Source: Christensenellaceae bacterium
GTDB taxonomy: Bacteria; Bacillota; Clostridia; Christensenellales; DTU072
Direction: 5' to 3'
Assembly (NCBI GenBank): GCA_031288735.1
Contig: JAITQU010000114.1
Location: 1 to 58,568, forward strand
Length of the DNA stretch: 58,568 bases
Positions 18,117-50,339 of the stretch are shown piece after piece. Under the pieces are notes generated by a model, which worked only from the letters and a program-made list of their open reading frames with translations, was not told the DNA's origin and made no database searches. Position 1 is the stretch's first letter. Each line of letters opens with the position of its first letter. The translations under genes and the position numbers were made by a program.

Positions 18117-18221
18117 TAAAAAAGTAATTTCTAAAAACACCTTAAACTTTAGTTATGATTCAGTTTAATGCTTTGTATCATTTCGTATCAGATATAATAT
18201 TTTTAGTAAAGGAGCATAACT

Positions 18222-21906: not shown

Positions 21907-21987
21907 GATTTTTCAAACGACCTTTTACAAACTGCTTTTTCCTTTCATGCGTTTTTTCTGATTTTGTACCATAAAGGGGTAGCGTTA

Positions 21988-32304: not shown

Positions 32305-33335
32305 AGACCCCATGCTATGTCATTGTATCTGAGATACTAAAAAGTAATCTAGAACAAATGAAAAAACGGATGGCTCCATGCAACATTTTTTATTCAATGA
32401 AATCCAATCCAACCAATGTTGTTGCCAGCGTTTTGTCTGAGATGGATTGTGGATTTGAGGTTTCTAGCTTAGCTGAGGCACAAATTTTAAATAATTTACA
32501 GGTTGGAGAAAAAAGAATTTATTGCGGTCTTCCTGTTTTGACTAATGAACAAGTTATGATTTTTTTAGAATTTGGGTGTAAGCGGTTCGTTTACGATACA
32601 ATACGTCAAATGAAACGCCTAGTTTGTTTTGCACCAAATACACAAAAAGTTTTACGACTTACAGTAGATGATCTTTCTCCTGGTGCGATTGGATTTGGCG
32701 TGTCTATCGCGGAACTTGAAGCTAATCCTGAATTATTAACGGAAGCTGACGGAATGAGCTTTCACATTAGTAACCATAGTGAAATAAACCAAACTTTGCT
32801 TGCATTGGACCGAGTAGAGCAGTTAATGATAACTACCCCGAAAATAAGGCTTCTAAATATTGGTGGTAGCTATACGCTTACAGGGCAGGAAGAAGATTAT
32901 GAATCACTGCGTCTTCGGTTGTATGCGCTAATGCGGCAACACAATCTTACGCTAATGTGCGAACTAGGTTCTGCCATTGTTAACACTGCAGGAAATGTAT
33001 TGACTCGTTGTGTTATGGTACGAGATAGGGGTGGTTTTACCGACGTGTTTTTGGACGCAGGGGTACCAGCTGGCGTTATGCGATCGCCAAAAAAATTATA
33101 CAATCTTTCACAGCCGAACCCATTACATAGGCATTTTTATCGTTTTTTTGATACTACTAGCATGCGCCAACTATTATTTCAAATGCATATAAAACAAAAT
33201 ATTTCAGAAGGAGATTTGCTAAAGCTTACTGATTACGGTGCATATTCGTTTTGCTACAGTAATCGTTTCCACTCTCAACCAATGCCAGAAATCTTTTTAT
33301 TTCAGGAGGAACAAGAATTTGAAAAATTGGTATGA
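32301..33335 (+). CDS. Fold-type III PLP-dependent decarboxylase (Orn/DAP/Arg decarboxylase family; BtrK/NspC-like size)
   Basis: The PLP-Lys context is FYSMKSNP. NIGGSY, ELGSAIV and the C-terminal DYGAYSFCYSNRFHSQPMPE are also present. ATG 32301 overlaps the megasynthase stop (ATGA) and follows GGAGGA at 32289-32294; the ORF-track start at 32256 is upstream. Confidence 0.7.
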   Translation: MKTPCYVIVSEILKSNLEQMKKRMAPCNIFYSMKSNPTNVVASVLSEMDCGFEVSSLAEAQILNNLQVGEKRIYCGLPVLTNEQVMIFLEFGCKRFVYDTIRQMKRLVCFAPNTQKVLRLTVDDLSPGAIGFGVSIAELEANPELLTEADGMSFHISNHSEINQTLLALDRVEQLMITTPKIRLLNIGGSYTLTGQEEDYESLRLRLYALMRQHNLTLMCELGSAIVNTAGNVLTRCVMVRDRGGFTDVFLDAGVPAGVMRSPKKLYNLSQPNPLHRHFYRFFDTTSMRQLLFQMHIKQNISEGDLLKLTDYGAYSFCYSNRFHSQPMPEIFLFQEEQEFEKLV

Positions 33336-33336: not shown

Positions 33337-34653
33337 ATGTTTTGTCAAAACAGTTTGCAAAACGGCGCATTTGATTACACTTCGTTGGTTTCTCAGAGCG
33401 ACAGTATATCGGATGGGATTAATCATCTTGGAACTCCCGAACTTTACAGAAAACTTATTGCAGAAGAAATTATGCAAGGAATACGCATTAGTGGATATTC
33501 TCAATCCTCTGGGCACCCCTTGTTAACTTATGGTATTGGGATGTATGAACGAATACTTGCTGGAGAAGAGCCTGAAAACTCATGTTTTTGTGCACATGTA
33601 TGTGTAACGGTGGGAGCCACAGCCGCTATTAAGAGCTTGTTTTCTTATTTTGCTGAAGGAAAGGGGATTAATGATGTTATGTGTCTAGGCATGAACTATT
33701 ACCTATTTGCTGTGTGTGCGCAACGATATAATATGCGCTTATCCAATTTACTCGGAGAACACACAATTGCACCCAACTTGCAGCAAATTGTGTGTGAAAT
33801 TCCAAAACATAAAGGAGGATTGCTTATTCTGACGCAACCTATGAATCCGTCAGGTGAGCAATACTGTGAATCAGAACTCATACAAATTTTTTCAATGTGC
33901 AAAAACTACGATTATACAGTTATTTTGGACCTTTGTCAGATGGATGAGCTGAATCCATATGGCACTGAGGTAAATATTGGGCGAGCGATACTTACGTCTG
34001 GAGCAGAAAATACAGTAGTGATTGTTAATAGCTTTTCTAAAATTCGCAGTCTTGCTGGAATGAGATTGGGTTATCTAGCTACAAACGATAAAAAATTAGC
34101 TAAATATGCTACATACCTAAACGAAATCAATAGTTTTAATCATACCCTTGGATGTGAAAATGCAGTAATTGTTGATTTGTTTTATCGAACCATTTTACGT
34201 AGTGTTGAAGCAAGCCATAAATCAACCGTGCGACTTTTTAGGAACTTAATTTTGCAAACAGCCGGAGAATCCATCTATCAGCGAGTATTTAGAAAACTCT
34301 TGAAAAGTGAATCCCTGTTTGAGGATGCAACGAATTTCCAAAAAGAGATTGCATCTCAATGGAAAATTGTTAGAAAAAATTATGAATTTTGCAAACAGAA
34401 ACTTCTTTTAGGCACAGCGTCACGAATCACTCCCTTAAGCGGAGGCTATAATTTCTGTGTTCGTTTTCCATTATCACTGGGACAGAGTGAGACCGAATGG
34501 GCGCAGATGATAGGACGTTCTATTGGATCCAATGTGTTAACACAGCAAAATTTCTGTGTTAAAATGGAAAAAAATTCGAAGAATGTTTGGCTTAGACTAA
34601 GTGCAGCAATGGAATCAAATCGTTTTCAGGGCTATATTTCAAAATTAGTATAA
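33337..34653 (+). CDS. Class I/II (fold-type I) PLP-dependent aminotransferase
   Basis: TQPMNPSGEQY (the NPxG motif) and NSFSKIRSLAGMRLGY (the SxSK PLP lysine) are present. ATG 33337 lies 1 nt after the decarboxylase stop; the ORF-track start at 33238 overlaps the previous gene. Confidence 0.8.
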   Translation: MFCQNSLQNGAFDYTSLVSQSDSISDGINHLGTPELYRKLIAEEIMQGIRISGYSQSSGHPLLTYGIGMYERILAGEEPENSCFCAHVCVTVGATAAIKSLFSYFAEGKGINDVMCLGMNYYLFAVCAQRYNMRLSNLLGEHTIAPNLQQIVCEIPKHKGGLLILTQPMNPSGEQYCESELIQIFSMCKNYDYTVILDLCQMDELNPYGTEVNIGRAILTSGAENTVVIVNSFSKIRSLAGMRLGYLATNDKKLAKYATYLNEINSFNHTLGCENAVIVDLFYRTILRSVEASHKSTVRLFRNLILQTAGESIYQRVFRKLLKSESLFEDATNFQKEIASQWKIVRKNYEFCKQKLLLGTASRITPLSGGYNFCVRFPLSLGQSETEWAQMIGRSIGSNVLTQQNFCVKMEKNSKNVWLRLSAAMESNRFQGYISKLV

Positions 34654-34669: not shown

Positions 34670-34924
34670 ATGGAAATTAAAAATAGAATTATCAATGTAC
34701 TCAATAACGTACTCGGTCGGGAAGTCACAATAACCCAATTACTAGAAGGAGGTATTTATTCCCTAGGAATTCATTCTCTTGTATTCTTAAAAATTGTTGT
34801 TGGTATAGAGGAGGAATTTGATATTATGTTTGATGACAATGAAATTAATTATGAAATGTTTAGAACGTTTGAAGATTTTTGCGATTTGATTGAGCGTAAA
34901 ACTAAGGAGGGGGACTATAAATGA
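34670..34924 (+). CDS. Free-standing carrier protein (ACP/PCP-like) 1
   Basis: The protein is 84 aa, acidic and helical, with the Ser motif GIHSLVFLKIVVGIEEEFD in the carrier-protein position. A GGAG RBS is present. Confidence 0.65.
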   Translation: MEIKNRIINVLNNVLGREVTITQLLEGGIYSLGIHSLVFLKIVVGIEEEFDIMFDDNEINYEMFRTFEDFCDLIERKTKEGDYK

Positions 34925-35166
34925 ATAATGTGGAGTTAATACACAAAGTCAAGGGCCTATTGCGGGAGAAGAGTAGATATAAAGGCGAAATAGACATGGA
35001 TCATTCTCTAGCAGGCATGCTTAATTCCATTACCTACATCCAGTTTCTTATTGCATGCGAGGATGCGTTTGAAATCGAAATAGAAGATGGTGAATTAGGC
35101 ATGACTAATTTTTCCACTTTTCAAGATATGGTTGATTTTCTAACAAAAAAAGTGTATCAATCATGA
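34921..35166 (+). CDS. Free-standing carrier protein (ACP/PCP-like) 2
   Basis: The protein is 81 aa, with the motif GMLNSITYIQFLIACEDAFE in the equivalent position. The start overlaps the previous gene (ATGA). Confidence 0.6.
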   Translation: MNNVELIHKVKGLLREKSRYKGEIDMDHSLAGMLNSITYIQFLIACEDAFEIEIEDGELGMTNFSTFQDMVDFLTKKVYQS

Positions 35167-36386
35167 ATGTGGTATTATTGCTTGAAGGACAGGGTAGTTA
35201 CTCTACCGAAAAAACTAAACAGCTAATTCAACATGATTCAAACGCATCTGCGTTATGGAAAAATGCTGACAAAATTCTTGGATGGAGTATTAGCGATCTT
35301 GTACATAAAAACGAACATACAGGAATGCTGGAAACGGATCTTGCTCAACCGATGATTTTTTTAATGGAGTATACGGCGTGGCATTGTGCGAAAAACACCT
35401 TGCCAGAAGCTCCAAACTGTGTTGTCGGACATAGCTTGGGGGAGATTACTGCTTTGGCAGCAGCAGAGGTTTTATGTTTTGAAGATGCCCTTCTTTTGAC
35501 AGCTCGGCGTGGTGAGGTTATGCAGAAATTTACATCAAAAGAGCCTCAAGGAATGGCTGCACTTATTGGGGCTAGCTCTGCAGAAGCGGAGCAGCTATGT
35601 AAGCAGGTGTCTCAAGAGCTTGATTTAGTTTTGACTTGTGCAAATTACAATTCTCCATCGCAAATCGTAATTTCAGGGTACCGAAAGGCGTTGGAACGAG
35701 CTGCTGAACTTACCACGAGTGTACTAAAGCCACTGCAGGTTACGCGGGCATTTCATACACCGCTGATGAAGTTTGCAGCAGATGTAATGGATGAGGCAAT
35801 GTCAAAATTAAAATTTTATCCATCTAAAATTCCAGTTATATCTGGAGTAACAGCAAGACCGTATCCAGCATCATGGACTGTTCGTCATTTACTAAAGAAA
35901 CAAATTACAAGTCCTGTGCGCTGGACTGAAATCATGAACTATCTTCAGGAAAAAGGCTTTACTACTTTTTTGCAAACATCGGAGCGTACATTATTTCGAG
36001 ATATGAACCCGGAATTAAGAGATGTCGTTTGCTGGGGTAGCCTAGAGCAGTGGAGCAATGGAGAATTATACAATTTTGATAATCTTTTTCGAAAAGGGAG
36101 TTCAGTATTGTTTGCCGTTGGCGTCTTAAGTGATTGTCTACGAAAAATGATTGCAAATCCGTGGCCAGAAAATATAGCTAGTGAAGACGTGAAACAGGCA
36201 CAGGGTTGCTATCATACGGTCTTGGATATTTGGAAAAAACAGGCAAGCGAGCCTACCCAGAGAGAAGTCGGTTTGGCGCTGAAGAATCTTAGCAAAGTTT
36301 TAACTATAAAAAAAATCGACTCAAAAACCAAATCGGAACAAATTGAGAATATTTTAGAAAAATATGGCATCAAAGGGATGTATTGA
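35163..36386 (+). CDS. Free-standing FabD-like acyltransferase (trans-AT) with about 110-aa C-terminal extension
   Basis: LLEGQGSY, the active site GHSLGEITA and RAFHTPLM are present. The FabD-like core covers about 290 aa and is followed by a helical extension of unknown function. The start overlaps carrier protein 2 (ATGA). Confidence 0.85.
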   Translation: MNVVLLLEGQGSYSTEKTKQLIQHDSNASALWKNADKILGWSISDLVHKNEHTGMLETDLAQPMIFLMEYTAWHCAKNTLPEAPNCVVGHSLGEITALAAAEVLCFEDALLLTARRGEVMQKFTSKEPQGMAALIGASSAEAEQLCKQVSQELDLVLTCANYNSPSQIVISGYRKALERAAELTTSVLKPLQVTRAFHTPLMKFAADVMDEAMSKLKFYPSKIPVISGVTARPYPASWTVRHLLKKQITSPVRWTEIMNYLQEKGFTTFLQTSERTLFRDMNPELRDVVCWGSLEQWSNGELYNFDNLFRKGSSVLFAVGVLSDCLRKMIANPWPENIASEDVKQAQGCYHTVLDIWKKQASEPTQREVGLALKNLSKVLTIKKIDSKTKSEQIENILEKYGIKGMY

Positions 36387-36390
36387 GAAC

Positions 36391-39300
36391 ATGCAATTAT
36401 ACGAACTTTCTCATGCACAAAAAAGAATATTGCTTTCACAACAGATGTATCCAAATAAACCTGTATGTAATATTGGCGGGTATGCGATTTTTGACGGATA
36501 TGTGAAAATAGAAAATTTGAAAACAGCCCTTATTCGAACGGTAGAGTTTTATGATGCCTTTTCTATTCGTATTCGTCTCACAAGTGAGGGATATCGTCAA
36601 TATTTCCTTTGGCAAGAACCAGAACCCTCGCTTTGGGAATCAAACAAAACCACTATAGATAGCGAACAAACAGTGATATCCTTAGTAAGAGAAATGCTCG
36701 AAAAACCCTTTCCACTGCTCGACGAAGCACTGTTTCGAATTATGCTGTTGCGTTTGGGCAAAGATAGGGTTGGCTATGCCATATGTTGCCATCACATAAT
36801 ATTTGATGGATGGTCTATGCGTCTCTTTACCGATGCAGTAAACACGTTTTACAATGGAAGCATACCCCAAAAAAGCTCTTACGTTGATTATTTGAAACAG
36901 GAACAGCAATATCTTGAATCTTCACAGGCGGAAAGGGATCGAATGTTCTGGGAACAAATGTTAGAAAAATTCAAGCCAGACAAGATAGAGGGCAGTAGTG
37001 CATGTTATGGATGGCGAGAGGAATTTTTGATGACAGAGTCTCTAGGACAGAGATTTACGGAAATAGGAGATCGTTTTGGCGGGATCAATATGATATTGCA
37101 TGCCTTTGTTGGACTGATGGAAGTTTACCGTAGAAACAACCAACCTGCGTTACTTAGTATTCCAATTTATAGTCGCCGTGGAAAGCGGATGAAATCAACG
37201 GTCGGCATGTTTACTAGCACTATGTTGCTTGGAATTCCTTGTGAAGCAGAATGGACACTTTCTGAATTTGTTGAAGAAATTAAAAATCGATTTAGAAAAT
37301 CGTTAAGACATCAGCGATGGCCCTATAATCTTATAAAAAACAGAGAGCATGCTCAATTTCGATGCAGCGTTAATTGTTATAATATGAATTTGCATGCTTC
37401 TATGGGAACAGCCTCTGGTAAATACCGTGAAATTTATCCTGGCTGTCAAGCTATTCCCGTGCAAATAATTTTAAATACTTGGGAAAAGCCGTGGCGTATT
37501 GTTTTTGATTTGAGAAGCGACTTGTTTCGTAAAGAGGATAGCAAAGTGATGATGCTGTTTTTCGAAAATTTTTTAACTGTATTAGAAAAAGACCCCGAAT
37601 GCACTGTCATGGATTTTGTTCATAAGCTAGAAGAGCAAGAACGAAGTCGTCAGAAAGGAACTTTCTTGGAAGATTTGCAAGTTTTCTCGCTTACCAAACA
37701 ATTTCAAAAGATATTTGAAATAGAAAATTCAGAAGAAGTAGTCATTTATTATGATGAAAAAAATATAAATAAAGAACAGTTATCAAATTATCTTTGTAGT
37801 GCAGCAAAAAGCCTTACAGATGCTGGGTTACAGTGTGGAGATAAAATAGTGTTGCTAATGGAAAATTCTCCGGAATATGTAATTTATACTTTAGCCGCAG
37901 TAGGACTTGGAATCATTTTTATTCCGCTAGATATCGATACATTGGAAGAGCAAATTTCCTTTGTGCTGAGTAACAGTGCTGCAGCAGCAATAGTTACTAA
38001 GATGAATCTTTCAATAAATTTTCAAAAAAAAGTTATTCGTCCACTTTTAAGCCAAGACACACAATTTTTTCAGTGGCCAGAACTTTCTGATACGGAAATA
38101 GTCTATTGTATATATACTTCGGGCACAACGGGCAAATCCAAAGGGGTCACCGTATCCCGTGGAGCTTTAGCTTCTTACCTAAGTTGGAGTAGAACTTACT
38201 ACAGTTGCAGTGAAAAGAAACTAAATTTTTTGATGTTCACATCTCCTGCGTTTGACTTATCGCTTACTGCGCTGTTTTTGCCGCTGACAAGTGACGGGCA
38301 ACTTGTTATTGTACCTCGTGGGGGGATACATCAATTACATAACCTGCAGAATATTTCGCAGGTAACAGCAATTAAAGCAACACCGTCCCACTTGGAACTA
38401 CTCTTACGCACCGACAAATCAAACCTTTCGCTAAAGGCAATTATCTGTGGAGGAGAAGAGTTAACTGTTTCTCTGGCCAAACGTTTACAGCAGCGCTTTG
38501 GTGTGGATTGTCAAATCTATAATGAATATGGTCCCACCGAATGTACGATTGGGTGTATGTATCATAAATTTAATAGTTTGGATGGAGAAGATCGCGGAGT
38601 CTCTATTGGACGTGCTGCTCCAGGATGCCGTGCCTACGTTGTGTCTGAAAACAAACACCTTGCTTATGGCGGAACGATAGGAGAAATTTATTTAGCTGGA
38701 AAGCAGCTTGCAACAGGTTATTTAAATGAACCGAAAAAAACACGGGAAGCATTCCTTCAAAATTTTTTAGGAGAGACAGTAACTTACCGCACAGGTGATC
38801 TTGCACGCTATGAAAACGGCAAATTAACTTATTTAGGTAGGAAAGATAATCAAAAAAAAATTAATGGATATCGTATTGAACTTGGAGGGGTAGAGAATGC
38901 TATAAAATCTATCCCTGGAGTAACAAATGCCGGAGTTTGGGTTGAGCCGGGTGTGCGGCAGACACTTTGTGCGGCAGTAGAGACGACTATTTTGGCAGAA
39001 AAATTCATTCGCACAGAGCTTTTAAAAATGCTACCAGTTTATTGTATGCCTCACCATTTTTTCTTACGAGAACAATTGCCACTAAATCAGAATGGAAAAT
39101 TGGATACGAGTCTATTTCAAATTCAAACAAAGTCACCTCAAGGAACAGTTCGAAAAGTAGTGGAATCGGCTATTCGAAAAGTTCTAGATTATAACGGTGA
39201 TATAGATAAATTTGATTACTTTGCTGCAGGAGGAGATTCTGTTCGTGCATTGTTTTTATCCACGGCACTAGAGGAAGCAGGGCTTTCCCTTTCGATGGCA

Positions 39301-40452
39301 GATATTCTAACACATCCTAAAATAAAAGAATTAGAGGCATTGGTTATAGATACTAAGATGCAACAAACGCAGACTTTAGAAGAATACCCACTACCTAAGC
39401 ATCTTCAGTATCTGCGCGACACATGTACGGATTTTAGAAAATATCGACATACTTTGGTATTTTGCTTAAATAATGAATTATCTCAAAAATGGGCAGATGA
39501 AAGCTACCACTTACTTTTAAAAAAATTTCCGGCTTTGCAGACCGAATTTGAGTATGAAAAAGGTGTTTTGCGATATAACCGTAATCATATAGGGTCAGCT
39601 ATTCATGCTAAAAGAGGAGAAATGCGAAAGAAGCTGGAGATGCATAGTGACCACTTGTTTAATTTTGTGATTGAATACGATTTAGCAGAAACGAAAATTG
39701 GGATTTCGCTTCATCACATCTTAGCCGATGCGGTTTCTTGGAAATTGATTTTGGGTGCAATGTTGCTTCTAACTGAAGGAAAGGATATTCAACAAATTGG
39801 AGACATGAGGTTATACCAATTAGATGAAGCGATGGAATATAATTGGCCTAATCAAGTGCCACTATGTCTTGGAGAATATTTTACATGCTCAGCAACAATT
39901 CCATTGACAGAACCATGCGATATTTATACATTTATTGATTTATGTACTGAAACGCTTGCGAAGCGAACCGAAACTGCAAATATGGTGGCTTTATGCGACT
40001 GGAATGGGCGAATGATGCTCAAACAAACAGGGATGACAACTGAAATAGGATGCTATTCTGTTTTCCTGCCAATATACCCTAAAAAAGGAATGGTCAGAAG
40101 TCAGATAGAAGAGCTTCTAAATCAAAAAAAGATTGACCTTCCTGCGCAAGAAAAAGCAATCAGAATCAATTTTTTGGGCGATCTTGGACGTCTTATGCCA
40201 AGTAAATTAAAATTTGTGCCAGAATCCTTAGAGTGGAGCATGGAATCCTGTAGTGCGCATGGGTGTGCAGCAGAAATTACTTGTGTATGTAGTGCGACAG
40301 AAATGAAAATTTATATTGCAACTCGCGGAATTCTGGATTTAAAACTTCTGCCACATATTCTTGAAGATGTTGTAAAACGAGTAGAAAATCCTATACGAGA
40401 AGATTTGTTAGGGCTTAATAAGTCAGAAATAGATGCCTTATTTGACGACTGA
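36391..40452 (+). CDS. NRPS module C(starter-like)-A(Asn-like code)-T-E(epimerase-type)
   Basis: The N-terminus MQLYELSHAQKRILLSQQMYP resembles lipopeptide starter C domains. The C motif HHIIFDGWS lies at 36790-36816. The A domain has YTSGTTGKSKG (38113-), NEYGPTE, YRTGD and NGKLDTS. T has GGDS with Ser at 39238. The C-terminal domain has HHILADAVSWKLI (39712-), DWNGRM and TTEIGCYSVFLPIYP, which follow the E-domain patterns HHxxxDxVSW, EGHGRE and TVGWFT. An alternative start is ATG 36364. Confidence 0.92.
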   Translation: MQLYELSHAQKRILLSQQMYPNKPVCNIGGYAIFDGYVKIENLKTALIRTVEFYDAFSIRIRLTSEGYRQYFLWQEPEPSLWESNKTTIDSEQTVISLVREMLEKPFPLLDEALFRIMLLRLGKDRVGYAICCHHIIFDGWSMRLFTDAVNTFYNGSIPQKSSYVDYLKQEQQYLESSQAERDRMFWEQMLEKFKPDKIEGSSACYGWREEFLMTESLGQRFTEIGDRFGGINMILHAFVGLMEVYRRNNQPALLSIPIYSRRGKRMKSTVGMFTSTMLLGIPCEAEWTLSEFVEEIKNRFRKSLRHQRWPYNLIKNREHAQFRCSVNCYNMNLHASMGTASGKYREIYPGCQAIPVQIILNTWEKPWRIVFDLRSDLFRKEDSKVMMLFFENFLTVLEKDPECTVMDFVHKLEEQERSRQKGTFLEDLQVFSLTKQFQKIFEIENSEEVVIYYDEKNINKEQLSNYLCSAAKSLTDAGLQCGDKIVLLMENSPEYVIYTLAAVGLGIIFIPLDIDTLEEQISFVLSNSAAAAIVTKMNLSINFQKKVIRPLLSQDTQFFQWPELSDTEIVYCIYTSGTTGKSKGVTVSRGALASYLSWSRTYYSCSEKKLNFLMFTSPAFDLSLTALFLPLTSDGQLVIVPRGGIHQLHNLQNISQVTAIKATPSHLELLLRTDKSNLSLKAIICGGEELTVSLAKRLQQRFGVDCQIYNEYGPTECTIGCMYHKFNSLDGEDRGVSIGRAAPGCRAYVVSENKHLAYGGTIGEIYLAGKQLATGYLNEPKKTREAFLQNFLGETVTYRTGDLARYENGKLTYLGRKDNQKKINGYRIELGGVENAIKSIPGVTNAGVWVEPGVRQTLCAAVETTILAEKFIRTELLKMLPVYCMPHHFFLREQLPLNQNGKLDTSLFQIQTKSPQGTVRKVVESAIRKVLDYNGDIDKFDYFAAGGDSVRALFLSTALEEAGLSLSMADILTHPKIKELEALVIDTKMQQTQTLEEYPLPKHLQYLRDTCTDFRKYRHTLVFCLNNELSQKWADESYHLLLKKFPALQTEFEYEKGVLRYNRNHIGSAIHAKRGEMRKKLEMHSDHLFNFVIEYDLAETKIGISLHHILADAVSWKLILGAMLLLTEGKDIQQIGDMRLYQLDEAMEYNWPNQVPLCLGEYFTCSATIPLTEPCDIYTFIDLCTETLAKRTETANMVALCDWNGRMMLKQTGMTTEIGCYSVFLPIYPKKGMVRSQIEELLNQKKIDLPAQEKAIRINFLGDLGRLMPSKLKFVPESLEWSMESCSAHGCAAEITCVCSATEMKIYIATRGILDLKLLPHILEDVVKRVENPIREDLLGLNKSEIDALFDD
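39370..40449 (+). other. Epimerization-type domain at the C-terminus of the C-A-T-E NRPS
   Basis: HHILADAVSW has the VSW of E domains rather than the GWS of C domains. PLPKHLQYL sits where E domains carry PLTPIQxWF. DWNGRM sits at the EGHGRE position (Asp for Glu). IGCYSVFLPIYP fits the VGWFTxxYP pattern. Confidence 0.65.
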
Positions 40453-40472: not shown

Positions 40473-41468
40473 ATGGTAATGGATCGAATTTCAGGAATTA
40501 TTCCCTACAACAAATGCTTTTACTATAACTGTTTTCACAGTCATTTATTTCCAATCATAGAGAAAAATCGTGGTAATTGTACCCTTTTTCTCGCAAATGG
40601 GATTCCTTATTTTCAAATACAAACAAATGAGACAAGCAAACGTATTTTGGTACGATTTGCATTCCAATCTGACTATACAGTTCTTTTAGCGCAACAAGGT
40701 ATTTCAGTAAGGAAGTTTTCCGCAAGTGATTGGAAGCAAGTCTTAGATAAAGCCTTACTGAATGAAGAGCCTGTGATTGTTGGTGTTGATGGTTGGTACT
40801 TAGATTATCGTGATGATCTTTATCATAAAATACATTGGCCACATACGCTCTTGATATTTGGTGTGGACCAAAGTAATAAAACATATTTAGCTATAGATCA
40901 ACCTACCAGGGAAAACATGCAATTTTCAGAGTGGACACTTACAAGCCATGTGTTAGAAAGTGCGTATGAAGGTTTTTGTAAACAAAAAGGTCATGATCCT
41001 TTGTTTTCTGCTGACGAAATGATACTGTTTCATTTTGAGGGTAACCCAGACCCTTGTACTGCAAAGGAAATAGCGATATTTTGGCATAAAAATCGAAAAA
41101 TGCAGCGAATGAAAATTTTTCAAGGACTCTATAAATTGGCAGAATTTAAATGTTACTTAATGAATTGTTTAGATATGTCTTCTAGTAGTAGTGACGCATG
41201 CGCATTTGTTCTGGAGGGGCTAAATGATATTGTAAAACAAAAGCGTTGGGAAGTGTTTTTTCTAAAGTATTTGTTACCATCGCATGAGAATTGTGCAAAT
41301 ATAGCACAAAACCTCCTAAACTATTGGAGTAATATTAGAAATTTAGTTGGGTATGTCTTTCTATCTGGGTATTCACGAAAAAAAACCGTGCAGCATATTT
41401 ACGAAAAATATGAAATTGTGCTCAAGACAGAGCGAGAATACGCTGTCTTGGCAGAAGAAGAGGTATAG
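40473..41468 (+). CDS. BtrH-like / C39-like papain-fold Cys-His protein (putative carrier-protein-dependent acyltransferase or peptidase), paralog 1
   Basis: An N-terminal Cys context (YYNCFHSHLF) is followed by EPVIVGVDGWYLDYRDDLYHKIHWPHTLLIFGVDQSNKTYLAIDQP, with an all-helical C-terminal half. The pattern is shared with 44345-45319. The family assignment is from memory of the BtrH_N/DUF4872 architecture and is not verified. Confidence 0.45.
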   Translation: MVMDRISGIIPYNKCFYYNCFHSHLFPIIEKNRGNCTLFLANGIPYFQIQTNETSKRILVRFAFQSDYTVLLAQQGISVRKFSASDWKQVLDKALLNEEPVIVGVDGWYLDYRDDLYHKIHWPHTLLIFGVDQSNKTYLAIDQPTRENMQFSEWTLTSHVLESAYEGFCKQKGHDPLFSADEMILFHFEGNPDPCTAKEIAIFWHKNRKMQRMKIFQGLYKLAEFKCYLMNCLDMSSSSSDACAFVLEGLNDIVKQKRWEVFFLKYLLPSHENCANIAQNLLNYWSNIRNLVGYVFLSGYSRKKTVQHIYEKYEIVLKTEREYAVLAEEEV

Positions 41469-41471
41469 TTT

Positions 41472-43130
41472 ATGCATATAGGATTGATGGGGAACTCTTT
41501 ACGCCCAATGATTCAGCAAGGAACGGTTTATGGATATGACATCGCAGCAAATGAACTAATTGATAGTATTTTTCGCTACAGCAATGCAGATCGTATAACC
41601 TGTCTTTATGAACCAGAACAATTTCAGCAAGAACTTTTAATGCGCAAAAAAAACAAAGTGCTTCGCAAACAGGAAACAGAAAAAGAAATTTCGCTGCTGA
41701 GCGAATATGATCTTCTATTTCATTCAGACAAGACTAAGATGTTGGATATGGAGATACTTCATAATGTGAGTAGTGAGTTTTCTCCTCTTTTAGCGCTGCG
41801 TGAGGTTATTGGTCGCCCCATTCCAATAACTTTTACTATCCATTGTGCTAGTTATCCTCAGCTTTTGAATAACTTCTTTCTTCCGATGAGCATGATGTGC
41901 TTTAAATCGTATGACGCACTGATTTGCACTTCAGCAGCGGTTCGCTTAACGGTTGAAAAAATTTTGAAACGTACTAGAGAATATTCGGGTAAGGGAAATC
42001 AATTGAGATTAGAACAAATCCCTCTAGGTGTGGATACCAACCGGTTTGCTCCTGGAAGACGATTTGAAGCCAGAGAAAAATATAATATTCCTAAAGATGC
42101 TTTTGTAATCCTTTGGCTTGGACGTATTTCCGCTTGTGATAAAGCAGATTTATGTCCACTTTTGCAGGTTGTCGCAAAGCTGATTCGAAAAAATCCAAAT
42201 AAACAAATCCGTTTAGTCATTGCAGGATACCAGCCCGAAGGGACATCGTATTTGCAGGCGCTACAAGGGCTGACACGTACACTTGAGGTGAGCGAAGAAA
42301 CCATTTTTTTTGACAGACATGATATTTCTACACGTAGCGATTTATACGCGCTTAGTGATGTGTTTACTTCTCCAGTGGACAACGTACAAGAAACTTTTGG
42401 TATTACTCCTATCGAGGCGATGTCTTGTGGTGTTCCTCAAGTAGTAAGCGATTGGAATGGGTATCGAGATACTGTGGTGGATAAAGTTACTGGTTTTCGT
42501 ATACCAACATATTGGTGTAAATGTGATGAAGATTTGTGCTTATTAGGGGAATTGCCATCGGATCAGCAACACCGAAGCCAACTTCATCATTATTTACTTA
42601 GCCAGACAGTTGCAATAGATCCAAACGCATATTTAGCAGCATTTCAGACACTTTTAGATAATGAAGATTTACGGCGAAAGATGTCAGAAGCTTCTCGCTC
42701 AGAGGCACTTAAGCGGTTTGACTGGAAAAATGTTATTTCAGCGTACGATATTCTTTGGAAAGATTTATCGAAACAAGCAACTACTTCCAAAGAAAGCTTT
42801 AATCCTGATAAGCTTCTTTTACCAAATTATTGTGAAGATTTCGCTTCATATCCTACTTCTTTTTTAGGAGAAAATGTTCCTTTTTCCCGAATTAATGGTA
42901 AAAAAGCAATGCTTAAAGATTCTCATCATGCTCCGTATGGCGTGGAGTCTATTTTGTTTCCAAATGAATTGCTAGATCAAATTTTGATTCGCCTGTCTCA
43001 AAGCTTGTGTACTATGAAAGAGTTTTGTGCGGAACATCCTACGCAGCCTCAGGCACAAATTCGTAGAAGTTTTATGTTTTTATGTAAATATGGGATGATT
43101 TGTCCATATCTCGAAACAAAAGGTAGGTAA
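41472..43130 (+). CDS. GT-B fold glycosyltransferase (GT4-like)
   Basis: The C-terminal Rossmann half carries ILWLGRISACDKAD. It also carries the EX7E-type motif ETFGITPIEAMSCGVPQVVSDWNGYRDTVVDKVTGF. Confidence 0.8.
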   Translation: MHIGLMGNSLRPMIQQGTVYGYDIAANELIDSIFRYSNADRITCLYEPEQFQQELLMRKKNKVLRKQETEKEISLLSEYDLLFHSDKTKMLDMEILHNVSSEFSPLLALREVIGRPIPITFTIHCASYPQLLNNFFLPMSMMCFKSYDALICTSAAVRLTVEKILKRTREYSGKGNQLRLEQIPLGVDTNRFAPGRRFEAREKYNIPKDAFVILWLGRISACDKADLCPLLQVVAKLIRKNPNKQIRLVIAGYQPEGTSYLQALQGLTRTLEVSEETIFFDRHDISTRSDLYALSDVFTSPVDNVQETFGITPIEAMSCGVPQVVSDWNGYRDTVVDKVTGFRIPTYWCKCDEDLCLLGELPSDQQHRSQLHHYLLSQTVAIDPNAYLAAFQTLLDNEDLRRKMSEASRSEALKRFDWKNVISAYDILWKDLSKQATTSKESFNPDKLLLPNYCEDFASYPTSFLGENVPFSRINGKKAMLKDSHHAPYGVESILFPNELLDQILIRLSQSLCTMKEFCAEHPTQPQAQIRRSFMFLCKYGMICPYLETKGR

Positions 43131-44341
43131 TGAAAAATTGGAACAAAAAAATTCAGTATGCCAAAGTGCATATTTGTGGACAAGAAACGGAGATATTTGG
43201 TATTCCTGATAGACTATATCAGCTAGCATCCAATAGTAAAGCGTTTACTGCTCTCGGAATTTTGCTTTTAGTCCAGCAAAAAAGATTGAAATTGGATTTG
43301 CCAACCGATGCCTATTCTGACAAGCTTTGTTTCAGTGACAAGCACGGTTTGCAACAAACAGTAACTATTCGCCAATTACTAAACCATTATGGAGGGCTTG
43401 ATAAAAACACCATACGTTTTCAGCATGAGGGCGAAATGGATATAACAGATGCAGCACAAGCTATTACAAAAATGCCGCTAAAGAGTGCCCCCGGAACCAA
43501 GTTTTGTTATGCTACAGGCGGATATATTGTATTAGGCAGAATTATTGAGATAATTAGCGGTCAATCCTACGGTGAGTTTATTAGAAAAAACATATTTGCT
43601 CCTCTAGACCTAGACGCAACAGATGTGGAGCAAGTGCCACTGCGTGGTTTAAAAGATGGTCTCTTTGGGGTACGCTATGCTAATTGGAAAGGTTGTGGAG
43701 CGTTTGCTCCTGCTGGCTACTTGATTAGTAGCCCAAAAAACTGCGCTCGTTGGTTAGAACTTTTGCTTGGGAATATTGAAATTGAAAATGAATACAAGAT
43801 ATTGCTGCAACGTAGTTTAGATTTACGTGATTACGTGCAAACAAAGGAAAACGGCGTTTTTTATGGGTTTGGTTGGTACTATGATAAAAGGCAAGACGTG
43901 TATTTTCATGATGGAAGAAATCCTTATTTTTCTTCTTGTATTGCATTTTCGTCCGCAGGAAAAGGGGCAGCAGCACTGTGCAACATTCACTTGAGTCGTT
44001 CTGTAGAAGAAGTATTCGAATTTATGGGGTTGGAAAAAGAAAAAAGATTGCCACATAATTTTAAAGCAATGATTGTACGAATTGGGATTGCATTATTATT
44101 TATATCGTGCGCTTTAGTTTTGCATGTAGTTGGAGTTGGTGTAAAAGCGATTGTCTTTTCAGTGTTTGCAACGACTATAACACAAATAGCGATATACCTT
44201 ATTTCGGGTGAGCTTTCAATTCGACAACAATATCTTTGGTTACCAGAATGGCTATTTGTACTACTATGGGTGTTTCCCGCCGGAATTGTTATTTTGATTA
44301 TGGGTGTTTTAAACCTGTTTTCTATACGAGGAGGATTATAA
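43130..44341 (+). CDS. S12 / beta-lactamase-fold serine hydrolase with three C-terminal transmembrane helices (ClbP-like architecture)
   Basis: The SxxK motif is S34-N-S-K37, with the Ser codon at 43229. FCYATGGYIVLGRIIEIISGQSYGEF is the YxN-region pattern and FHDG is the HxG motif. Three hydrophobic helices lie in aa about 316-400 (IVRIGIALLFISCALVLHVVGV, AIVFSVFATTITQIAIYLISG, WLFVLLWVFPAGIVILIMGVLNLF). No N-terminal signal peptide is evident. Confidence 0.8.
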   Translation: MKNWNKKIQYAKVHICGQETEIFGIPDRLYQLASNSKAFTALGILLLVQQKRLKLDLPTDAYSDKLCFSDKHGLQQTVTIRQLLNHYGGLDKNTIRFQHEGEMDITDAAQAITKMPLKSAPGTKFCYATGGYIVLGRIIEIISGQSYGEFIRKNIFAPLDLDATDVEQVPLRGLKDGLFGVRYANWKGCGAFAPAGYLISSPKNCARWLELLLGNIEIENEYKILLQRSLDLRDYVQTKENGVFYGFGWYYDKRQDVYFHDGRNPYFSSCIAFSSAGKGAAALCNIHLSRSVEEVFEFMGLEKEKRLPHNFKAMIVRIGIALLFISCALVLHVVGVGVKAIVFSVFATTITQIAIYLISGELSIRQQYLWLPEWLFVLLWVFPAGIVILIMGVLNLFSIRGGL

Positions 44342-44344
44342 ATT

Positions 44345-45319
44345 ATGCTTCAATTAAATTATCGAACTCAAATTACAGAAGTTCCTGACTGCATGATGGG
44401 GTCTATTGTAAACGCAGCATTATACTATGGGATGGACTATGCATATTTATATCGCGGAATATGGGTATTTCGCTTTGAAGCCAAAAGTGAGCAGAACGAT
44501 AGTTTTTGGAAAAGGCTATCCACCGATGAACTTGTCAATTCACATAAGCAGATTGAACTATACCATGGGCTTCAACTTCAGCGTTATGAAGCCTGTGACA
44601 AGGAAGAATTTCTTTCCGTGCTTAAAAAAGAATTACAAAATGGTAATCCTGTCGCAGTTGGATTTGATGCTTTTTATTGTCCATGGTCTGGTGTTTATCG
44701 CAGACATACCTTACTGCATTTCTGTCTAATAGTAGGCTTGGATGAAAAAAGTCGTGAAATTCTTTGTGCGGACCCATACTTTATGGCGAATATTCGTCCA
44801 TGTCCTATCGACGAAATGATGGCAGGCTTTTTAGAGTTTAGCCTATTTCGCAAGATACAACCCGTATGCGGTTTAGAAACATGGAAACAGGATGTTCTGC
44901 TTTGTGCAAAACAAAAAATTGATGATGACGTGTTCACCCAAATGCGGGAAATGAAGGATGAAATTTTAAATTCTCGTGGATTCGTTTCGGAAATTAGACA
45001 GCAAAATGATAAATATTCTTATGAATTGTTTTATCAAATAAAATATATTCATCATAGCAGAGTTAATCACGGAGAATTTTTGCGATACGTTGCAAAGCAT
45101 GTAGGTCAGCAGGCTCAAATGTTGAATAAAAGCGCAAAATGCTTAGATGAAGCGGGCAAATTGTGGGCAACAACAGGGCAGTGTTTTACTAAACTTGCTT
45201 ATCTGGATGATAAAAAAAGAACCGAAAAATTGATTGCTGGAATTGCTGAAAGGATGGAAAAATGTATTGAGTTAGAATACCTTGCTGCAACACATATTTT
45301 AGAAAGTATAGGAGAATGA
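44345..45319 (+). CDS. BtrH-like / C39-like papain-fold Cys-His protein, paralog 2
   Basis: The N-terminal Cys context is VPDCMMGSIVNAAL. It is followed by NPVAVGFDAFYCPWSGVYRRHTLLHFCLIVGLDEKSREILCADPY and a helical C-terminal half. An AGGAGG RBS is present. Confidence 0.45.
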   Translation: MLQLNYRTQITEVPDCMMGSIVNAALYYGMDYAYLYRGIWVFRFEAKSEQNDSFWKRLSTDELVNSHKQIELYHGLQLQRYEACDKEEFLSVLKKELQNGNPVAVGFDAFYCPWSGVYRRHTLLHFCLIVGLDEKSREILCADPYFMANIRPCPIDEMMAGFLEFSLFRKIQPVCGLETWKQDVLLCAKQKIDDDVFTQMREMKDEILNSRGFVSEIRQQNDKYSYELFYQIKYIHHSRVNHGEFLRYVAKHVGQQAQMLNKSAKCLDEAGKLWATTGQCFTKLAYLDDKKRTEKLIAGIAERMEKCIELEYLAATHILESIGE

Positions 45320-45322: not shown

Positions 45323-47242
45323 ATGGATGATGGATATTACCTTTCTACATATACACATATTGATTCGCTGGGACATTTGTATCGACTATCTTTACGTCAT
45401 GACCAAAGTATGGCTCTCTGGAAAAAAGATGGTGAAAAAATTCGTCTTATACGTTATTGGGAATTTGAGAGAATATCAGGGTTAAAAAAACACGATTTAT
45501 CTTTCTATTCTCAAGAGCAAGCATGTACTGCAATCAATACAATGTTGCTTTCATTTGGACTTTCGCTTAAAGATATGCAAGCTGTTTGGGGCACACCAGG
45601 TTTAGAACTGGTAGGACAAATTTCTTACTATAATTCCGAAAATCCATGCCCGTTACACAGTTTATGTCATTTGTTTTCTGGTATGCTAACTGATAGTGAA
45701 ACTTTTTATAAAAAGAAAATTTTAGCTTTAGCTTTAGACGGAGGGCCAGATAACGTTATAGATCAAGGTGCAAGGGAAAAACAATTTTACTGGGGTGCGT
45801 TTGTTGACCGAGGGGGTATTTCCTATTTTGAAGTTCCATCTCCGGGTGCTTTTTGGAGTTTAGCGCGATTTGAACTTGGTATGGAAGAGGGGTCAATGAT
45901 GGCTCTGGGTAGTGCCGTAACTTCTCATCTACCCAATGAAAAGAGTCTTGCTGCAAAGGCGCCTATTGTTTTAAATGGAAAAGGATTTGATGCCGCTTAT
46001 CGCTGGCTGAAAAAAATAATCGAGGTAACTAGGATGTTAAGTGCTGATGAGATTTTAGAGTATGATCCACGGTTTTCTCTGGAAGATAACCAAATCGGCA
46101 TCATAATAAAAGTTATTCAACGAGCATCGTTTAATATTTTAGAAGATATTGTTGCAAAGGCGGTAAAGCAGTATAATCTTGATCCGTCTGAAGTAATTTT
46201 GAGCATGTCCGGCGGATTTGCACTAAATTGTCCGGCAAATAGTCATTTAATGAAAAAATTTGGTTTTCAAAGTTTTCAAACTTGTCCATGTGTGAGCGAT
46301 AGCGGGATTGCGTTGGGCATGGGTCTGTTTGAGTTTTATGCACAAATGGAGACATTCCAGTTTCGTTTAGAAAATGCCTATTATGGATGTGAAGATCGCC
46401 GTACGATTTCTGAATTAACCAACATGTGGGGGTGTTATATCCATTCTGTCAGTACATTTGATCGAGAAAAATTTGTAGTAGATTTAACATCATCTCCTCT
46501 TATTTGGTTCGATGGTGCTGCTGAGATTGGTCCGAGAGCTCTTGGTGCACGTAGTATTTTGGGAGATCCACGTACTCATAAAACAAAAGATCGACTCAAT
46601 GAGGTCAAACAGCGGGAATGGTGGCGACCTGTCGCTCCAATTGTTTTGGATCAAGAGCAACACAATTGGTTTGAAAATGCATTCTCATCGCCTTATATGC
46701 TTTGTACAAGTAAAGTAAAAGCAGAAAAAGCAAAACAGGTCGTGGCAGCACTGCATCTGGATAGGTCGGTTAGACTCCAGTCCATAAAACAAGAGAACAA
46801 TCCTCGTCTATATGATGCTATTTTGGCTTTTTATGAAGCAACGGGGATACCTCTTATTTGCAATACATCACTCAATGATAAAGGTGAACCCATCATAGAT
46901 CTTTTTGAGGAATGTATCAACTTTGCATTGCGCAAATGTATTTTTATTGTATATTTTAATGGTATGAGAATAGAACTAAAAAATTCAGAAAAATATTCAA
47001 AAAAAGAACCACTTCTACGTAATATTTTACTGTTTGATCCACTGAACAAAGAAGATATAGAAACTGCAAAAAAACAGTGGAACCCACATGGACTTACTCA
47101 TAAACAGGTAGATTTGTACTTGAATATACCAGAATTTAGAAACTATGATATCCGCAGCGAAAAGGATGTGCGTATGCTTGTCAGAATACTTGCACAGTGG
47201 GCGAGACTTAATGACACAGTTTGGAAAGCAATGCTTACATAA
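45323..47242 (+). CDS. NodU/CmcH/TobZ-family carbamoyltransferase
   Basis: The N-terminal RHDQSMALWKKDG carries the HDxxxA metal-site context. The C-terminal motifs are EIGPRALGARSILGDPR, REWWRPVAPIVL, HLDRSVRLQSI and ICNTSLNDKGEPI. Confidence 0.9.
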   Translation: MDDGYYLSTYTHIDSLGHLYRLSLRHDQSMALWKKDGEKIRLIRYWEFERISGLKKHDLSFYSQEQACTAINTMLLSFGLSLKDMQAVWGTPGLELVGQISYYNSENPCPLHSLCHLFSGMLTDSETFYKKKILALALDGGPDNVIDQGAREKQFYWGAFVDRGGISYFEVPSPGAFWSLARFELGMEEGSMMALGSAVTSHLPNEKSLAAKAPIVLNGKGFDAAYRWLKKIIEVTRMLSADEILEYDPRFSLEDNQIGIIIKVIQRASFNILEDIVAKAVKQYNLDPSEVILSMSGGFALNCPANSHLMKKFGFQSFQTCPCVSDSGIALGMGLFEFYAQMETFQFRLENAYYGCEDRRTISELTNMWGCYIHSVSTFDREKFVVDLTSSPLIWFDGAAEIGPRALGARSILGDPRTHKTKDRLNEVKQREWWRPVAPIVLDQEQHNWFENAFSSPYMLCTSKVKAEKAKQVVAALHLDRSVRLQSIKQENNPRLYDAILAFYEATGIPLICNTSLNDKGEPIIDLFEECINFALRKCIFIVYFNGMRIELKNSEKYSKKEPLLRNILLFDPLNKEDIETAKKQWNPHGLTHKQVDLYLNIPEFRNYDIRSEKDVRMLVRILAQWARLNDTVWKAMLT

Positions 47243-49736: not shown

Positions 49737-50339
49737 ATGTCAGATTACTACGTATACCGTGTTGACAATGGGCTTTACATCAATGTTACTAATCGTTGTT
49801 CTTGTAATTGTGTGTTTTGCGTACGGAAATCAAGCGATGGTATTAACCAAGGTGAAAGCTTATGGCTACAAAAGGAGCCGTCTCTGGAGGAAATTACACA
49901 AGATATCGTTACTGCTGACCCGACTGGTTATTACGAGGTTGTTTTTTGTGGATACGGTGAACCCACGGAATGTCTGGAAACAGTTCTTGATGTTGCTAAA
50001 TTCATTAAAAAAAATTATTGCATCCCTATTCGTCTCAATACAAATGGGTTAAGTGACTTAATCTACGGTTGCTCCACCGCTAAAGAGATGGAAGGGTTAA
50101 TTGACACAATTTCTATAAGTTTGAATGCACCTACCAAAGAAGAATATCTTTCCATATCTAACCCTCGTTTTGGTCTTGGTTCTTTTGATGCAATGTTGCA
50201 ATTTGCTCAAGACTGTAAAAAGTATATTCCTAATGTCTTATTTACTGTAGTAGATGTCATAGATTCTGAAAAAATTGAAACTTGTAAAAAATTAGCAGCT
50301 CAAATGAACATAGAGTGTCGAATCAGAACAAAGATATAG
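49737..50339 (+). CDS. Small radical SAM protein (about 200 aa; resembles the TatD-associated radical SAM family)
   Basis: YINVTNRCSCNCVFCVRK carries CX3CX2C. FCGYGEPTE and RLNTNG are also present. Composition still matches the island (24/60 GC at 49801-49860). Confidence 0.7.
   Translation: MSDYYVYRVDNGLYINVTNRCSCNCVFCVRKSSDGINQGESLWLQKEPSLEEITQDIVTADPTGYYEVVFCGYGEPTECLETVLDVAKFIKKNYCIPIRLNTNGLSDLIYGCSTAKEMEGLIDTISISLNAPTKEEYLSISNPRFGLGSFDAMLQFAQDCKKYIPNVLFTVVDVIDSEKIETCKKLAAQMNIECRIRTKI

Follow-up and report, generated by a model that had tools for sequence, protein, structure and literature searches.

Contig JAITQU010000114.1 of the Christensenellaceae bacterium assembly GCA_031288735.1, analyzed here over its whole 58,568-nt length (referred to below as the window), carries a large hybrid nonribosomal peptide synthetase-polyketide synthase (NRPS-PKS) operon which includes two open reading frames (ORFs) named fam1 (40473-41468, 331 aa) and fam2 (44345-45319, 324 aa), both located on the + strand. 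Judging from Pfam searches, structural models and fold comparisons, both encode papain-like, two-domain proteins of the BtrH/CtaG/CcbD type. Both conserve a Cys-His-Asp triad, both belong to the operon, and both co-occur in related clusters with free carrier proteins and a pair of pyridoxal phosphate (PLP)-dependent enzymes. We propose, with a probability of roughly 0.6, that fam1 and fam2 are carrier-dependent transacylases acting in trans in a ClbP-type NRPS-PKS assembly line. They probably supply the amide-forming or release steps that are absent from the assembly line itself.

Sequence, fold and putative active site of fam1 and fam2

The two ORFs had been singled out in the initial annotation of this sequence as a pair of Cys/His proteins sharing one pattern, and their coordinates, strand, motifs and common core were all found to be as described there. 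In fam1, the start of which was placed at 40479 by the gene caller, the N-terminal motif YYNCFHS contains Cys20 (nt 40530-40532), and in fam2 the motif VPDCMMGS contains Cys16 (nt 44390-44392). The core shared by the two proteins reads EPVIVGVD..H124..D142QP in fam1 and NPVAVGFD..H125..D143P in fam2. In the BLASTP alignment, 31% of the residues are identical over a stretch of 70 aa (E 2e-7), while the comparison between the two profiles with hhalign gave a probability of 94.8% and an E value of 4.9e-8 over almost the whole length of the proteins (columns 66-326 vs. 73-324). On the basis of these alignments, fam1 and fam2 are distant paralogs showing a similarity well beyond chance. No third copy was detected in the window with the hidden Markov models (HMMs) of the two families.

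The fam2 protein matches the Pfam family BtrH_N (PF14399) with 32.9 bits, which is above the gathering cut-off of 29.7, and also passes the cut-off of Peptidase_C39_2 with 27.3 bits. The precomputed annotations assign PF14399 to 8 of the 16 fam2 orthologs and to three of the seven fam1 orthologs. No NCBIfam model matches either protein, and searches of the PDB sequences with single sequences and profiles of both families yielded only matches at the chance level, so that the homology with CtaG and CcbD is apparent only at the level of the fold.

The AlphaFold2 (AF2) models, which were built on the alignments of the orthologs, have a predicted local distance difference test (pLDDT) score of 87.6 and a predicted template modeling (pTM) score of 0.85 in the case of fam1, and scores of 86.8 and 0.88, respectively, in that of fam2. 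Both models consist of an alpha/beta N-terminal domain and, after it, five or six long helices packed in a bundle, in line with the helical C-terminal half previously proposed for these proteins. When they were compared with the PDB using Foldseek, full-length matches (340-390 columns) were obtained with three sets of proteins only: AziU3/U2 (7WUW, 8GS1), CtaG (9QUZ and its variants, 9QVJ), and CcbD (7YN1, 7YN2, 9DKR, 9DKS). The E values of these matches ranged from 2e-8 to 1e-5 in the case of fam1, with template modeling (TM) scores of 0.54-0.67, and from 1e-8 to 3e-5 in that of fam2, the TM scores of the two proteins taken together being 0.5-0.67. Judging from these models, fam1 and fam2 belong to the BtrH/CtaG/CcbD fold class, which was already known. 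The BtrH-like or C39-like family to which the two proteins were initially assigned is supported by the significant Pfam matches, and this assignment is much strengthened by the fold matches.

The putative triad is composed of Cys20, His124 (40842-40844), and Asp142 (40896-40898) in fam1, which are invariant in eight orthologs, and of Cys16, His125 (44717-44719), and Asp143 (44771-44773) in fam2, which are invariant in 16 orthologs; codon positions of the two cysteines (40530-40532 and 44390-44392) are those given above. In a wider alignment of 150 sequences, composed of the 149 best representatives of an exhaustive fam2 profile search and the window copy, the Cys is conserved in 137 sequences, the His in 143, and the Asp in 146. 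In the AF2 models, a helix begins with the Cys, the His opens a beta-strand, and the Asp is located 18 residues further on. This arrangement, as judged from the topology of the models, corresponds to the canonical papain positions.

Since a Cys-His-Asp triad is also that of the clan CA proteases, and since fam2 passes the Peptidase_C39_2 cut-off and finds the C39 domains of PCAT1 and ComA in its second tier of fold matches, the two proteins might alternatively be papain- or C39-like hydrolases, i.e., thioesterases or peptidases involved in the release of a free acid, in editing, or in the removal of a protecting peptide, in an assembly line which has no in-line thioesterase (TE) domain. This possibility seems to us to be improbable. 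The second tier of Foldseek matches is much weaker and partial: the C39 domains cover only the N-terminal half of fam2, with E values of 3e-4 or worse, whereas the full-length two-domain architecture is matched by transacylase-fold proteins only, and fam1 shows no C39 match either in Pfam or with Foldseek. The cluster already encodes a type II thioesterase as well as a peptidase resembling ClbP, and the characterized carrier-dependent members of this fold (BtrH, AsbE, CcbD, and CtaG) all make amides. As regards C39 leader peptidases in particular, which have a single peptidase domain of about 130-150 aa and are fused to or associated with an ABC exporter and a double-glycine precursor, fam1 and fam2 do not belong to this group: they are stand-alone proteins of about 330 aa, they have an additional helical domain, and they are encoded inside an NRPS-PKS operon.

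Free carrier proteins, conserved gene neighborhoods and the wider fam2 family

The region from 21964 to 49631, which extends from a megasynthase gene to a radical S-adenosylmethionine (SAM) gene, forms a single tightly packed operon in which the intergenic gaps range between -23 and +70 nt, all the genes being on the + strand. It encodes two small free acyl carrier proteins, called here ACP1 (34670..34924, 84 aa; PP-binding 32.1 bits) and ACP2 (34921..35166, 81 aa; PP-binding 22.1 bits). Both of them pass the PP-binding cut-off and both have kept Ser36, which is encoded at 34775-34777 and 35026-35028, respectively. Apart from these two, the window contains a single free carrier ORF, that of the housekeeping AcpP in the fab operon (9156-9470), and the count of exactly two free carriers in the cluster given in the initial annotation was correct. 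ACP1 and ACP2 are only 17% identical, while the orthologs of each type present in related clusters show 34-51% identity with them, which means that two distinct, conserved types of carrier are involved. The ACP1 orthologs in L003, L004, and L090 were found to be 34-43% identical to ACP1, and those of ACP2 34-48% identical to ACP2.

Two PLP-dependent enzymes are encoded just upstream of the carriers. The first is a decarboxylase of the ornithine/diaminopimelate/arginine (Orn/DAP/Arg) family (32301..33335, 344 aa according to the gene caller, the ORF extending upstream to 32256), which was recognized by Orn_Arg_deC_N (E 2.7e-16), lysA (6.5e-23), and nspC (1.1e-13). It had been described as BtrK-like: its identity as a PLP decarboxylase is supported by these matches, and BtrK is presumably a member of the same Orn/DAP/Arg-decarboxylase family. 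The second is a class I/II aminotransferase-fold enzyme (33355..34653, 432 aa according to the gene caller, with an ORF extending upstream to 33238; Aminotran_1_2, E 6.9e-12). The homologs of the decarboxylase are almost confined to the related clusters, throughout which the aminotransferase-fold gene always adjoins the decarboxylase and carrier genes.

Both families are rare: a total of 5.8 billion proteins yielded seven clusters in the case of fam1 and 16 in that of fam2, with contigs in common, and no relative was detected when 185,579 species representative genomes were scanned with fam2 peptide patterns. The related clusters are those of an apparently cultured Clostridium, a Bacteroidales metagenome-assembled genome (MAG), and several metagenome contigs. 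The cluster of Clostridium sp. D2Q-14 (L090; GCA_016820635.1) was found indirectly, via the decarboxylase; this strain seems to have been isolated in culture, in which case the role of fam1 and fam2 could be addressed by experiment. The two paralogs and the two types of carrier occur together in all six of the clusters in which the region is visible (window/L001, L003/L091, L004, L090, L094, and L095). The link between these enzymes, the free carriers and the decarboxylase suggested previously is supported by these gene neighborhoods, the arrangement being conserved across three phyla, the Elusimicrobiota, Bacillota, and Bacteroidota.

In the Bacteroidales MAG cluster (L092/L093), the decarboxylase, the aminotransferase, an ACP2-type carrier (87 aa), and the fam2 ortholog (HMM E 3e-99) are encoded consecutively, and in L092 the fam2 ortholog and the carrier gene overlap at the fam2 start. 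The 18 kb of this contig that are visible contain no clear gene for fam1, ACP1, or a GT4 glycosyltransferase. A 292-aa ORF present there (L092 6416-7294) was considered as a possible paralog and rejected, as it shows only a weak alignment at the His/Asp core and hhalign probabilities of 51.6% with fam1 and 5% with fam2. The GT4 gene adjoins fam1 in five of the seven fam1-bearing clusters, and the ClbP-like gene is intercalated in L003 and L094. The fact that the decarboxylase, the aminotransferase, the ACP2-type carrier and fam2 are kept in every related cluster, as is the B12-binding radical SAM enzyme encoded at the end of the operon (48102-49631, Pfam), suggests that these five genes form a core cassette, and the distribution of fam1, ACP1, and GT4 suggests that they constitute an accessory unit, the members of which travel together.

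The exhaustive fam2 profile search yielded 1,247 representatives at E 1e-3 or better. Distant relatives occur in minimal cassettes consisting of an adenylating enzyme, a carrier and a BtrH-like enzyme (L087, L088, and L089). Eight of the 149 top relatives are domains within proteins of at least 700 aa, seven of which are of the NRPS/PKS type according to Pfam. In several of them (e.g., P0094, P0113, P0166, P0119, and P0164), the BtrH-like domain directly follows the last thiolation (T) domain: in P0094, for example, the order is A-T-C-A(MT)-T-KS-KR-T-[BtrH-like], where A, C, MT, KS, and KR stand for the adenylation, condensation, methyltransferase, ketosynthase, and ketoreductase domains. In other fused forms, the BtrH-like domain either precedes an A-T pair or is joined to a T domain, and the triad is intact in most of the fused proteins. 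About one third of the top fam2 relatives (P0038, P0048, and about 50 others) are 500-580 aa long and have a C-terminal extension of about 200 aa which matches no Pfam family; this extension also trails the BtrH-like domain at NRPS C-termini (P0094 aa 3637-3847). No account of the present cluster, nor of BtrH_N as a terminal domain of NRPSs, was found in the searchable literature.

Assembly line and proposed mechanism

The operon begins with a megasynthase of 3446 aa (21964..32304), the organization of which was established with Pfam and by comparing its motifs with those of L090 and L091: C-A-T-C-A-T-KS-T-aminotransferase(class III)-C*. In the terminal C* domain, the motif FYNGWIDGWS (nt 31504-31533; aa 3181-3190 of the megasynthase) lacks both histidines of the HHxxxDG motif. 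The three orthologous domains examined all show the pattern Y-N/T-xxx-DG, and both histidines are likewise absent from L091 (YYNSWFDGWS) and from the Clostridium L090 sequence (YYTSLIDGWS). Pfam detected no in-line TE domain in the proteins of the assembly line.

A second NRPS of 1362 aa (36364..40452) has the organization C-A(Asn-like)-T-E-like, according to the Pfam matches with the C, A, and T domains and to a reading of its motifs, E being an epimerization domain. The specificity code of its A domain, DLTKICEIGK, agrees at seven of the 10 positions with the Asn code. The last 363 aa show only a weak match with the Condensation family in Pfam, and the question as to whether this terminal domain is of the E or C type was put to the PDB and NCBIfam without obtaining any match. 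Within these 363 aa, an E-type motif was recognized (HHILADAVSW, nt 39712-39741), as was an acidic tail which looks like a COM docking helix. The S12 peptidase encoded at 43130..44341, which is recognized by the Beta-lactamase family in Pfam (E 1e-40) and contains an SxxK motif at aa 34 and three C-terminal transmembrane (TM) helices discernible by eye, has as its best matches among the PDB sequences those of ClbP (3o3v, 7mdc, and 7mde; E about 1e-25), which cover residues 25-287, that is, the whole catalytic domain. The idea that it might be a thioesterase of the SurE type, related to penicillin-binding proteins, was discarded in view of these matches and of the ClbP-like C-terminal TM helices.

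Because of this ClbP-like peptidase and because the 1362-aa NRPS has an E-type end, the latter protein was placed first in the line and the megasynthase last. We infer that the operon encodes a prodrug NRPS-PKS of the ClbP type, the peptidase being supported by the above matches and the initiation module by the reading of motifs: the 1362-aa NRPS would be a ClbN-like initiation module making N-acyl-D-Asn, which would feed the megasynthase. Standard cleavage after the in-line Asn-like residue was rejected, since this residue is extended by the KS and no amide bond is left; the N-acyl-D-Asn unit that is cleaved off is therefore more likely to originate from the 1362-aa NRPS. No N-terminal signal peptide is visible by eye in the ClbP-like peptidase, the orthologs of which are of equal length (394-410 aa). 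In the absence of a signal peptide, the catalytic domain might face the cytoplasm, contrary to that of ClbP.

Papain-like thiotemplated ligases, which are precisely the group retrieved here with Foldseek, have been defined by Gude et al. (Chem 2026), who included BtrH, AsbE, and MllDE in this group on the basis of structure predictions (PMC12865890). The carrier-dependent amide synthases with a protease fold (CtaG, CcbD, BtrH, and AsbE) were recognized as a class only in 2020-2026, and the members characterized so far serve small pathways which are either independent of NRPSs or peripheral to NRPS lines.

The likeness of fam1 and fam2 to BtrH consists in the BtrH_N match, which in the case of fam1 falls slightly short of the cut-off, the combination of a papain-like N-terminal domain with a helical C-terminal domain, and the Cys-His-Asp triad of the BtrH models (PMC12865890). 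It also includes the presence of a small free ACP and an enzyme of the Orn/DAP-decarboxylase family in the same operon. In the case of butirosin, the free ACP and the decarboxylase are BtrI and BtrK. The cluster as a whole is not of the butirosin type, however: of the parts of that pathway, only ACPs, a decarboxylase, and BtrH-like proteins occur here, within a modular NRPS-PKS operon and with a pair of divergent paralogs and a pair of carriers. When every ORF in the cluster was scanned with Pfam and NCBIfam, no BtrJ-like ATP-grasp enzyme, BtrO/V-like monooxygenase, BtrG-like gamma-glutamyl cyclotransferase, or aminoglycoside core genes were detected.

The CtaG enzyme of the closthioamide pathway has the triad Cys11/His128/Asp144, and works with two different peptidyl carrier proteins (PCPs), CtaE and CtaH, one serving as the donor and the other as the acceptor (PMC12865890). 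Its full-length fold match with fam1 and fam2 (E 5e-8 to 7e-6, TM up to 0.67) is accompanied by nearly identical triad positions. The closthioamide pathway comprises two PCPs, a papain-like transacylase, a second enzyme from a protease clan (the transglutaminase CtaJ), a decarboxylase, and an aminotransferase, and its decarboxylase, CtaF, is reported to work only on a carrier-bound substrate (PMC7183216). Our cluster likewise encodes two distinct carriers, a decarboxylase, an aminotransferase, and one more enzyme from a protease clan, and closthioamide can therefore be regarded, by analogy, as a close precedent in terms of the list of parts. The differences are that the sequences of fam1 and fam2 are only 12-15% identical to that of CtaG, that closthioamide is made independently of NRPSs with an ATP-grasp enzyme, whereas a canonical NRPS-PKS with a trans-acting acyltransferase is involved here, and that the decarboxylase is PLP-dependent and of the Orn/DAP type.

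In the case of the lincosamide condensation enzyme CcbD (Cys19/His131, forming part of a Cys-His-Glu triad), the Cys takes over the carrier-tethered amino acid and hands it on to an amino-sugar amine by a ping-pong mechanism (PMC12945683). The fold of CcbD matches those of fam1 and fam2 over their full length (E 1e-7 to 3e-5), and as in the CcbD/LmbD systems, a glycosyltransferase is encoded nearby; the differences lie in the Glu of the CcbD triad, the low identity (10-14%), and the fact that no thiooctose, ergothioneine or mycothiol genes are present here. AsbE, which in petrobactin synthesis passes an aryl group from a PCP to an acceptor that is free, and MllDE, a carrier-transacylase fusion involved in that of methylolanthanin, are described as having the same fold and triad (PMC12865890), and carrier-BtrH-like fusions also exist among the fam2 relatives. 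These two enzymes belong to siderophore pathways without modular NRPS-PKS lines, unlike fam1 and fam2. The transglutaminase homologue AdmF, which is cited in PMC7183216 as the condensation catalyst of the andrimid assembly line, is a clan CA enzyme which forms an amide bond on thiotemplated intermediates in a hybrid NRPS-PKS pathway; it belongs to the transglutaminase-core family and is not BtrH_N- or C39-like.

The class of enzymes (BtrH, AsbE, CcbD, and CtaG) was already known, and in AdmF there is a precedent for condensation by a protease fold in an assembly line. In view of this precedent and of the fam2 relatives fused into NRPS and PKS proteins, the suggestion that carrier-protein chemistry of this kind would be unusual in an NRPS-PKS line was partly right and somewhat overstated. 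The new features are the association of two divergent paralogs and two dedicated types of carrier with a putative ClbP-type prodrug line ending in a histidine-less C domain, the conservation of this arrangement over three phyla, and the fact that BtrH-like domains are found elsewhere as fused terminal domains.

By analogy with CtaG and CcbD, fam1 and fam2, which would be catalytically intact, may work by ping-pong transacylation. The phosphopantetheine-bound acyl group would be transferred to the N-terminal Cys (Cys20 in fam1, Cys16 in fam2) with the help of His124/125 and Asp142/143, and the acyl-enzyme would then be resolved by an amine, giving an amide bond. As regards the donors and acceptors, fam2 would pair with ACP2, on which an amino-acyl unit would be built and processed by the decarboxylase, the aminotransferase, and the B12 radical SAM enzyme, and it would couple this unit to the polyketide-peptide chain, which would be bound to T3 as a thioester and would present a beta-amine introduced by the aminotransferase domain of the megasynthase. 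fam1 would perform a second transfer along with ACP1 and the GT4 enzyme, plausibly onto a sugar or another amine. Either or both enzymes would replace a condensation or release step that is beyond the reach of the degenerate C* domain.

Several findings weigh against this proposal. fam1 scores slightly below the BtrH_N cut-off (27.8 bits, E 3.3e-6), and DUF4872, the C-terminal domain of BtrH, was not detected in either protein with Pfam at E values up to 1. The identity between fam1 or fam2 and their solved fold homologs is just 10-16%. No dedicated loader for the free carriers, either a stand-alone A domain or an ATP-grasp enzyme, was found in the cluster in the window, and the sole candidate loaders are the malonyl-type acyltransferase or the in-line A domains acting in trans. 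The off-loading step had been described as missing: there is indeed no in-line TE, but a stand-alone type II thioesterase is encoded at 19671-20369 (Pfam), and chain release could be due to this enzyme; it is also conceivable that C* is still active despite having no histidines. In the metagenomic locus L087 (190-3904), a gene encoding an A-T didomain is accompanied by two BtrH-like genes, one on each side, both of the fam2 type, and the occurrence of two enzymes around a single A-T protein means that enzymes and carriers do not have to be equal in number. Lastly, the best Foldseek match of both proteins is AziU3/U2, the aziridine-forming system of azinomycin, which is called functionally unrelated in PMC12865890.

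The latter match (E about 1e-8, with 14-16% identity) would be accounted for if fam1 and fam2 formed a heterocomplex with a function other than acyl transfer, like the AziU2/AziU3 complex, which also consists of two proteins having the same fold. In clusters of the Endomicrobium and Clostridium types, neither gene is ever found without the other, and they are adjacent in L003 (2-nt gap) and L094 (17-nt gap). On the other hand, an invariant nucleophile triad is present in both proteins, carrier proteins are tightly linked to them, and fam2 has no clear fam1 ortholog alongside it in the visible part of the Bacteroidales contig. The mechanism of AziU3/U2 is a sulfate elimination, and Pfam searches detected no sulfotransferase in the cluster; to our knowledge, no carrier-thioester chemistry has been associated with AziU2/AziU3. 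We therefore take a heterocomplex of this kind to be very unlikely.

It is less unlikely, while still rather improbable, that fam1 and fam2 are carrier-to-carrier ligases of the CtaG type, with a donor and an acceptor that are both carrier-bound, as opposed to the free amine or sugar acceptors of BtrH, CcbD, and AsbE, in which case each pair composed of a carrier and an enzyme would be a non-canonical elongation module devoid of C and A domains, extending the chain past T3 and replacing C*. CtaG is among the best structural matches and itself employs two PCPs, a donor and an acceptor (PMC12865890), and two distinct, separately conserved carrier types as well as a C* without histidines occur in the cluster. 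Against this, there is a single CtaG for two carriers, as compared with two enzymes here; no amino-acyl loader for the free carriers was identified in the cluster; and the neighboring GT4, carbamoyltransferase, and APH-like genes suggest the existence of a sugar-like or hydroxylated free acceptor, at least in the case of fam1.

Returning to the transacylases acting in trans, an extension of this proposal can be put forward tentatively, and we would rate it as rather doubtful: papain-like transacylases and free carriers might constitute a hitherto unrecognized termination and elongation logic, in which C* would be a docking scaffold, and the fam2-ACP2 and fam1-ACP1 pairs would unload the last T domain and form the final amides in place of the C and TE domains. 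If it exists, this logic would also explain why BtrH-like domains are fused after the last T of other NRPS/PKS proteins. If fam1 and fam2 do carry out coupling or release, they would provide a compact replacement for C and TE domains that lends itself to engineering, as well as a new handle for genome mining in view of the fused terminal domains present in other synthetases.

Other genes of the cluster and its flanks

The carrier genes are followed by that of a trans-acting FabD-like acyltransferase with an additional C-terminal stretch of about 120 aa (35163..36386; Acyl_transf_1, E 4e-28; fabD, 2e-63), the GHSLG and RAFH motifs of which suggest a specificity for malonyl units. The GT4 glycosyltransferase mentioned above is MshA/BshA-like (41472..43130; Glycos_transf_1, E 5.8e-23; MshA, 1.9e-23). 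Downstream of fam2, the operon encodes a carbamoyltransferase of the NodU/TobZ type (45323..47242; Carbam_trans_C, E 1.8e-51; NodU, 5.6e-42) and a SAM methyltransferase (47279-48031, Pfam), which precede the B12-binding radical SAM enzyme. In three related clusters, the carbamoyltransferase is absent and a gene resembling those of aminoglycoside phosphotransferases (APH) and choline kinases is present (L003 13404-14336, L094 13779-14747, and L095 13355-14329), while others carry the carbamoyltransferase; these two genes look like alternative tailoring or resistance steps acting on a hydroxyl group.

Upstream of the operon, and likewise on the + strand, three genes identified with Pfam encode a SpoU-family methyltransferase (18222-18965), which may be a resistance enzyme, an Sfp-type phosphopantetheinyl transferase (PPTase; 18966-19670), and the type II thioesterase. 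The SpoU protein shows 39% identity (E 4e-66) with that encoded in the Bacteroidales cluster (L092 5674-6393), and the gene is a conserved member of the cluster. It might be speculated that this enzyme is an rRNA methyltransferase conferring self-resistance, which would hint at a product targeting the ribosome. These three genes are bracketed by a 100-nt direct repeat (18001-18100 / 21781-21880, 77% identical). The stretches 14800-18200 and 20400-21960, which flank the start of the cluster, contain only short broken ORFs resembling fragments of transposases and integrases, and a strong purine skew is observed at 16-18 kb.

On the right-hand side, a radical SAM protein of 200 aa (49737-50339) passes the TIGR04100 cut-off; since the G+C content returns there to the level of the flanks, this gene probably marks the edge of the cluster. 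It is followed by an ORF of 422 aa (50472-51740) which has no match in Pfam or NCBIfam. The G+C content of the cluster (about 18.2-49.6 kb) is 0.34-0.40, mostly 0.36-0.40, and exceeds that of the flanks (0.30-0.36), which suggests that this large NRPS-PKS cluster was acquired horizontally. The left-hand flank is occupied by housekeeping genes over 1-14.7 kb of the window. The host is related to the termite-gut Endomicrobium/Ca. Endomicrobiellum lineage, the AckA encoded in this flank (3545-4753) being 74% identical to that of the MAGs of this lineage.

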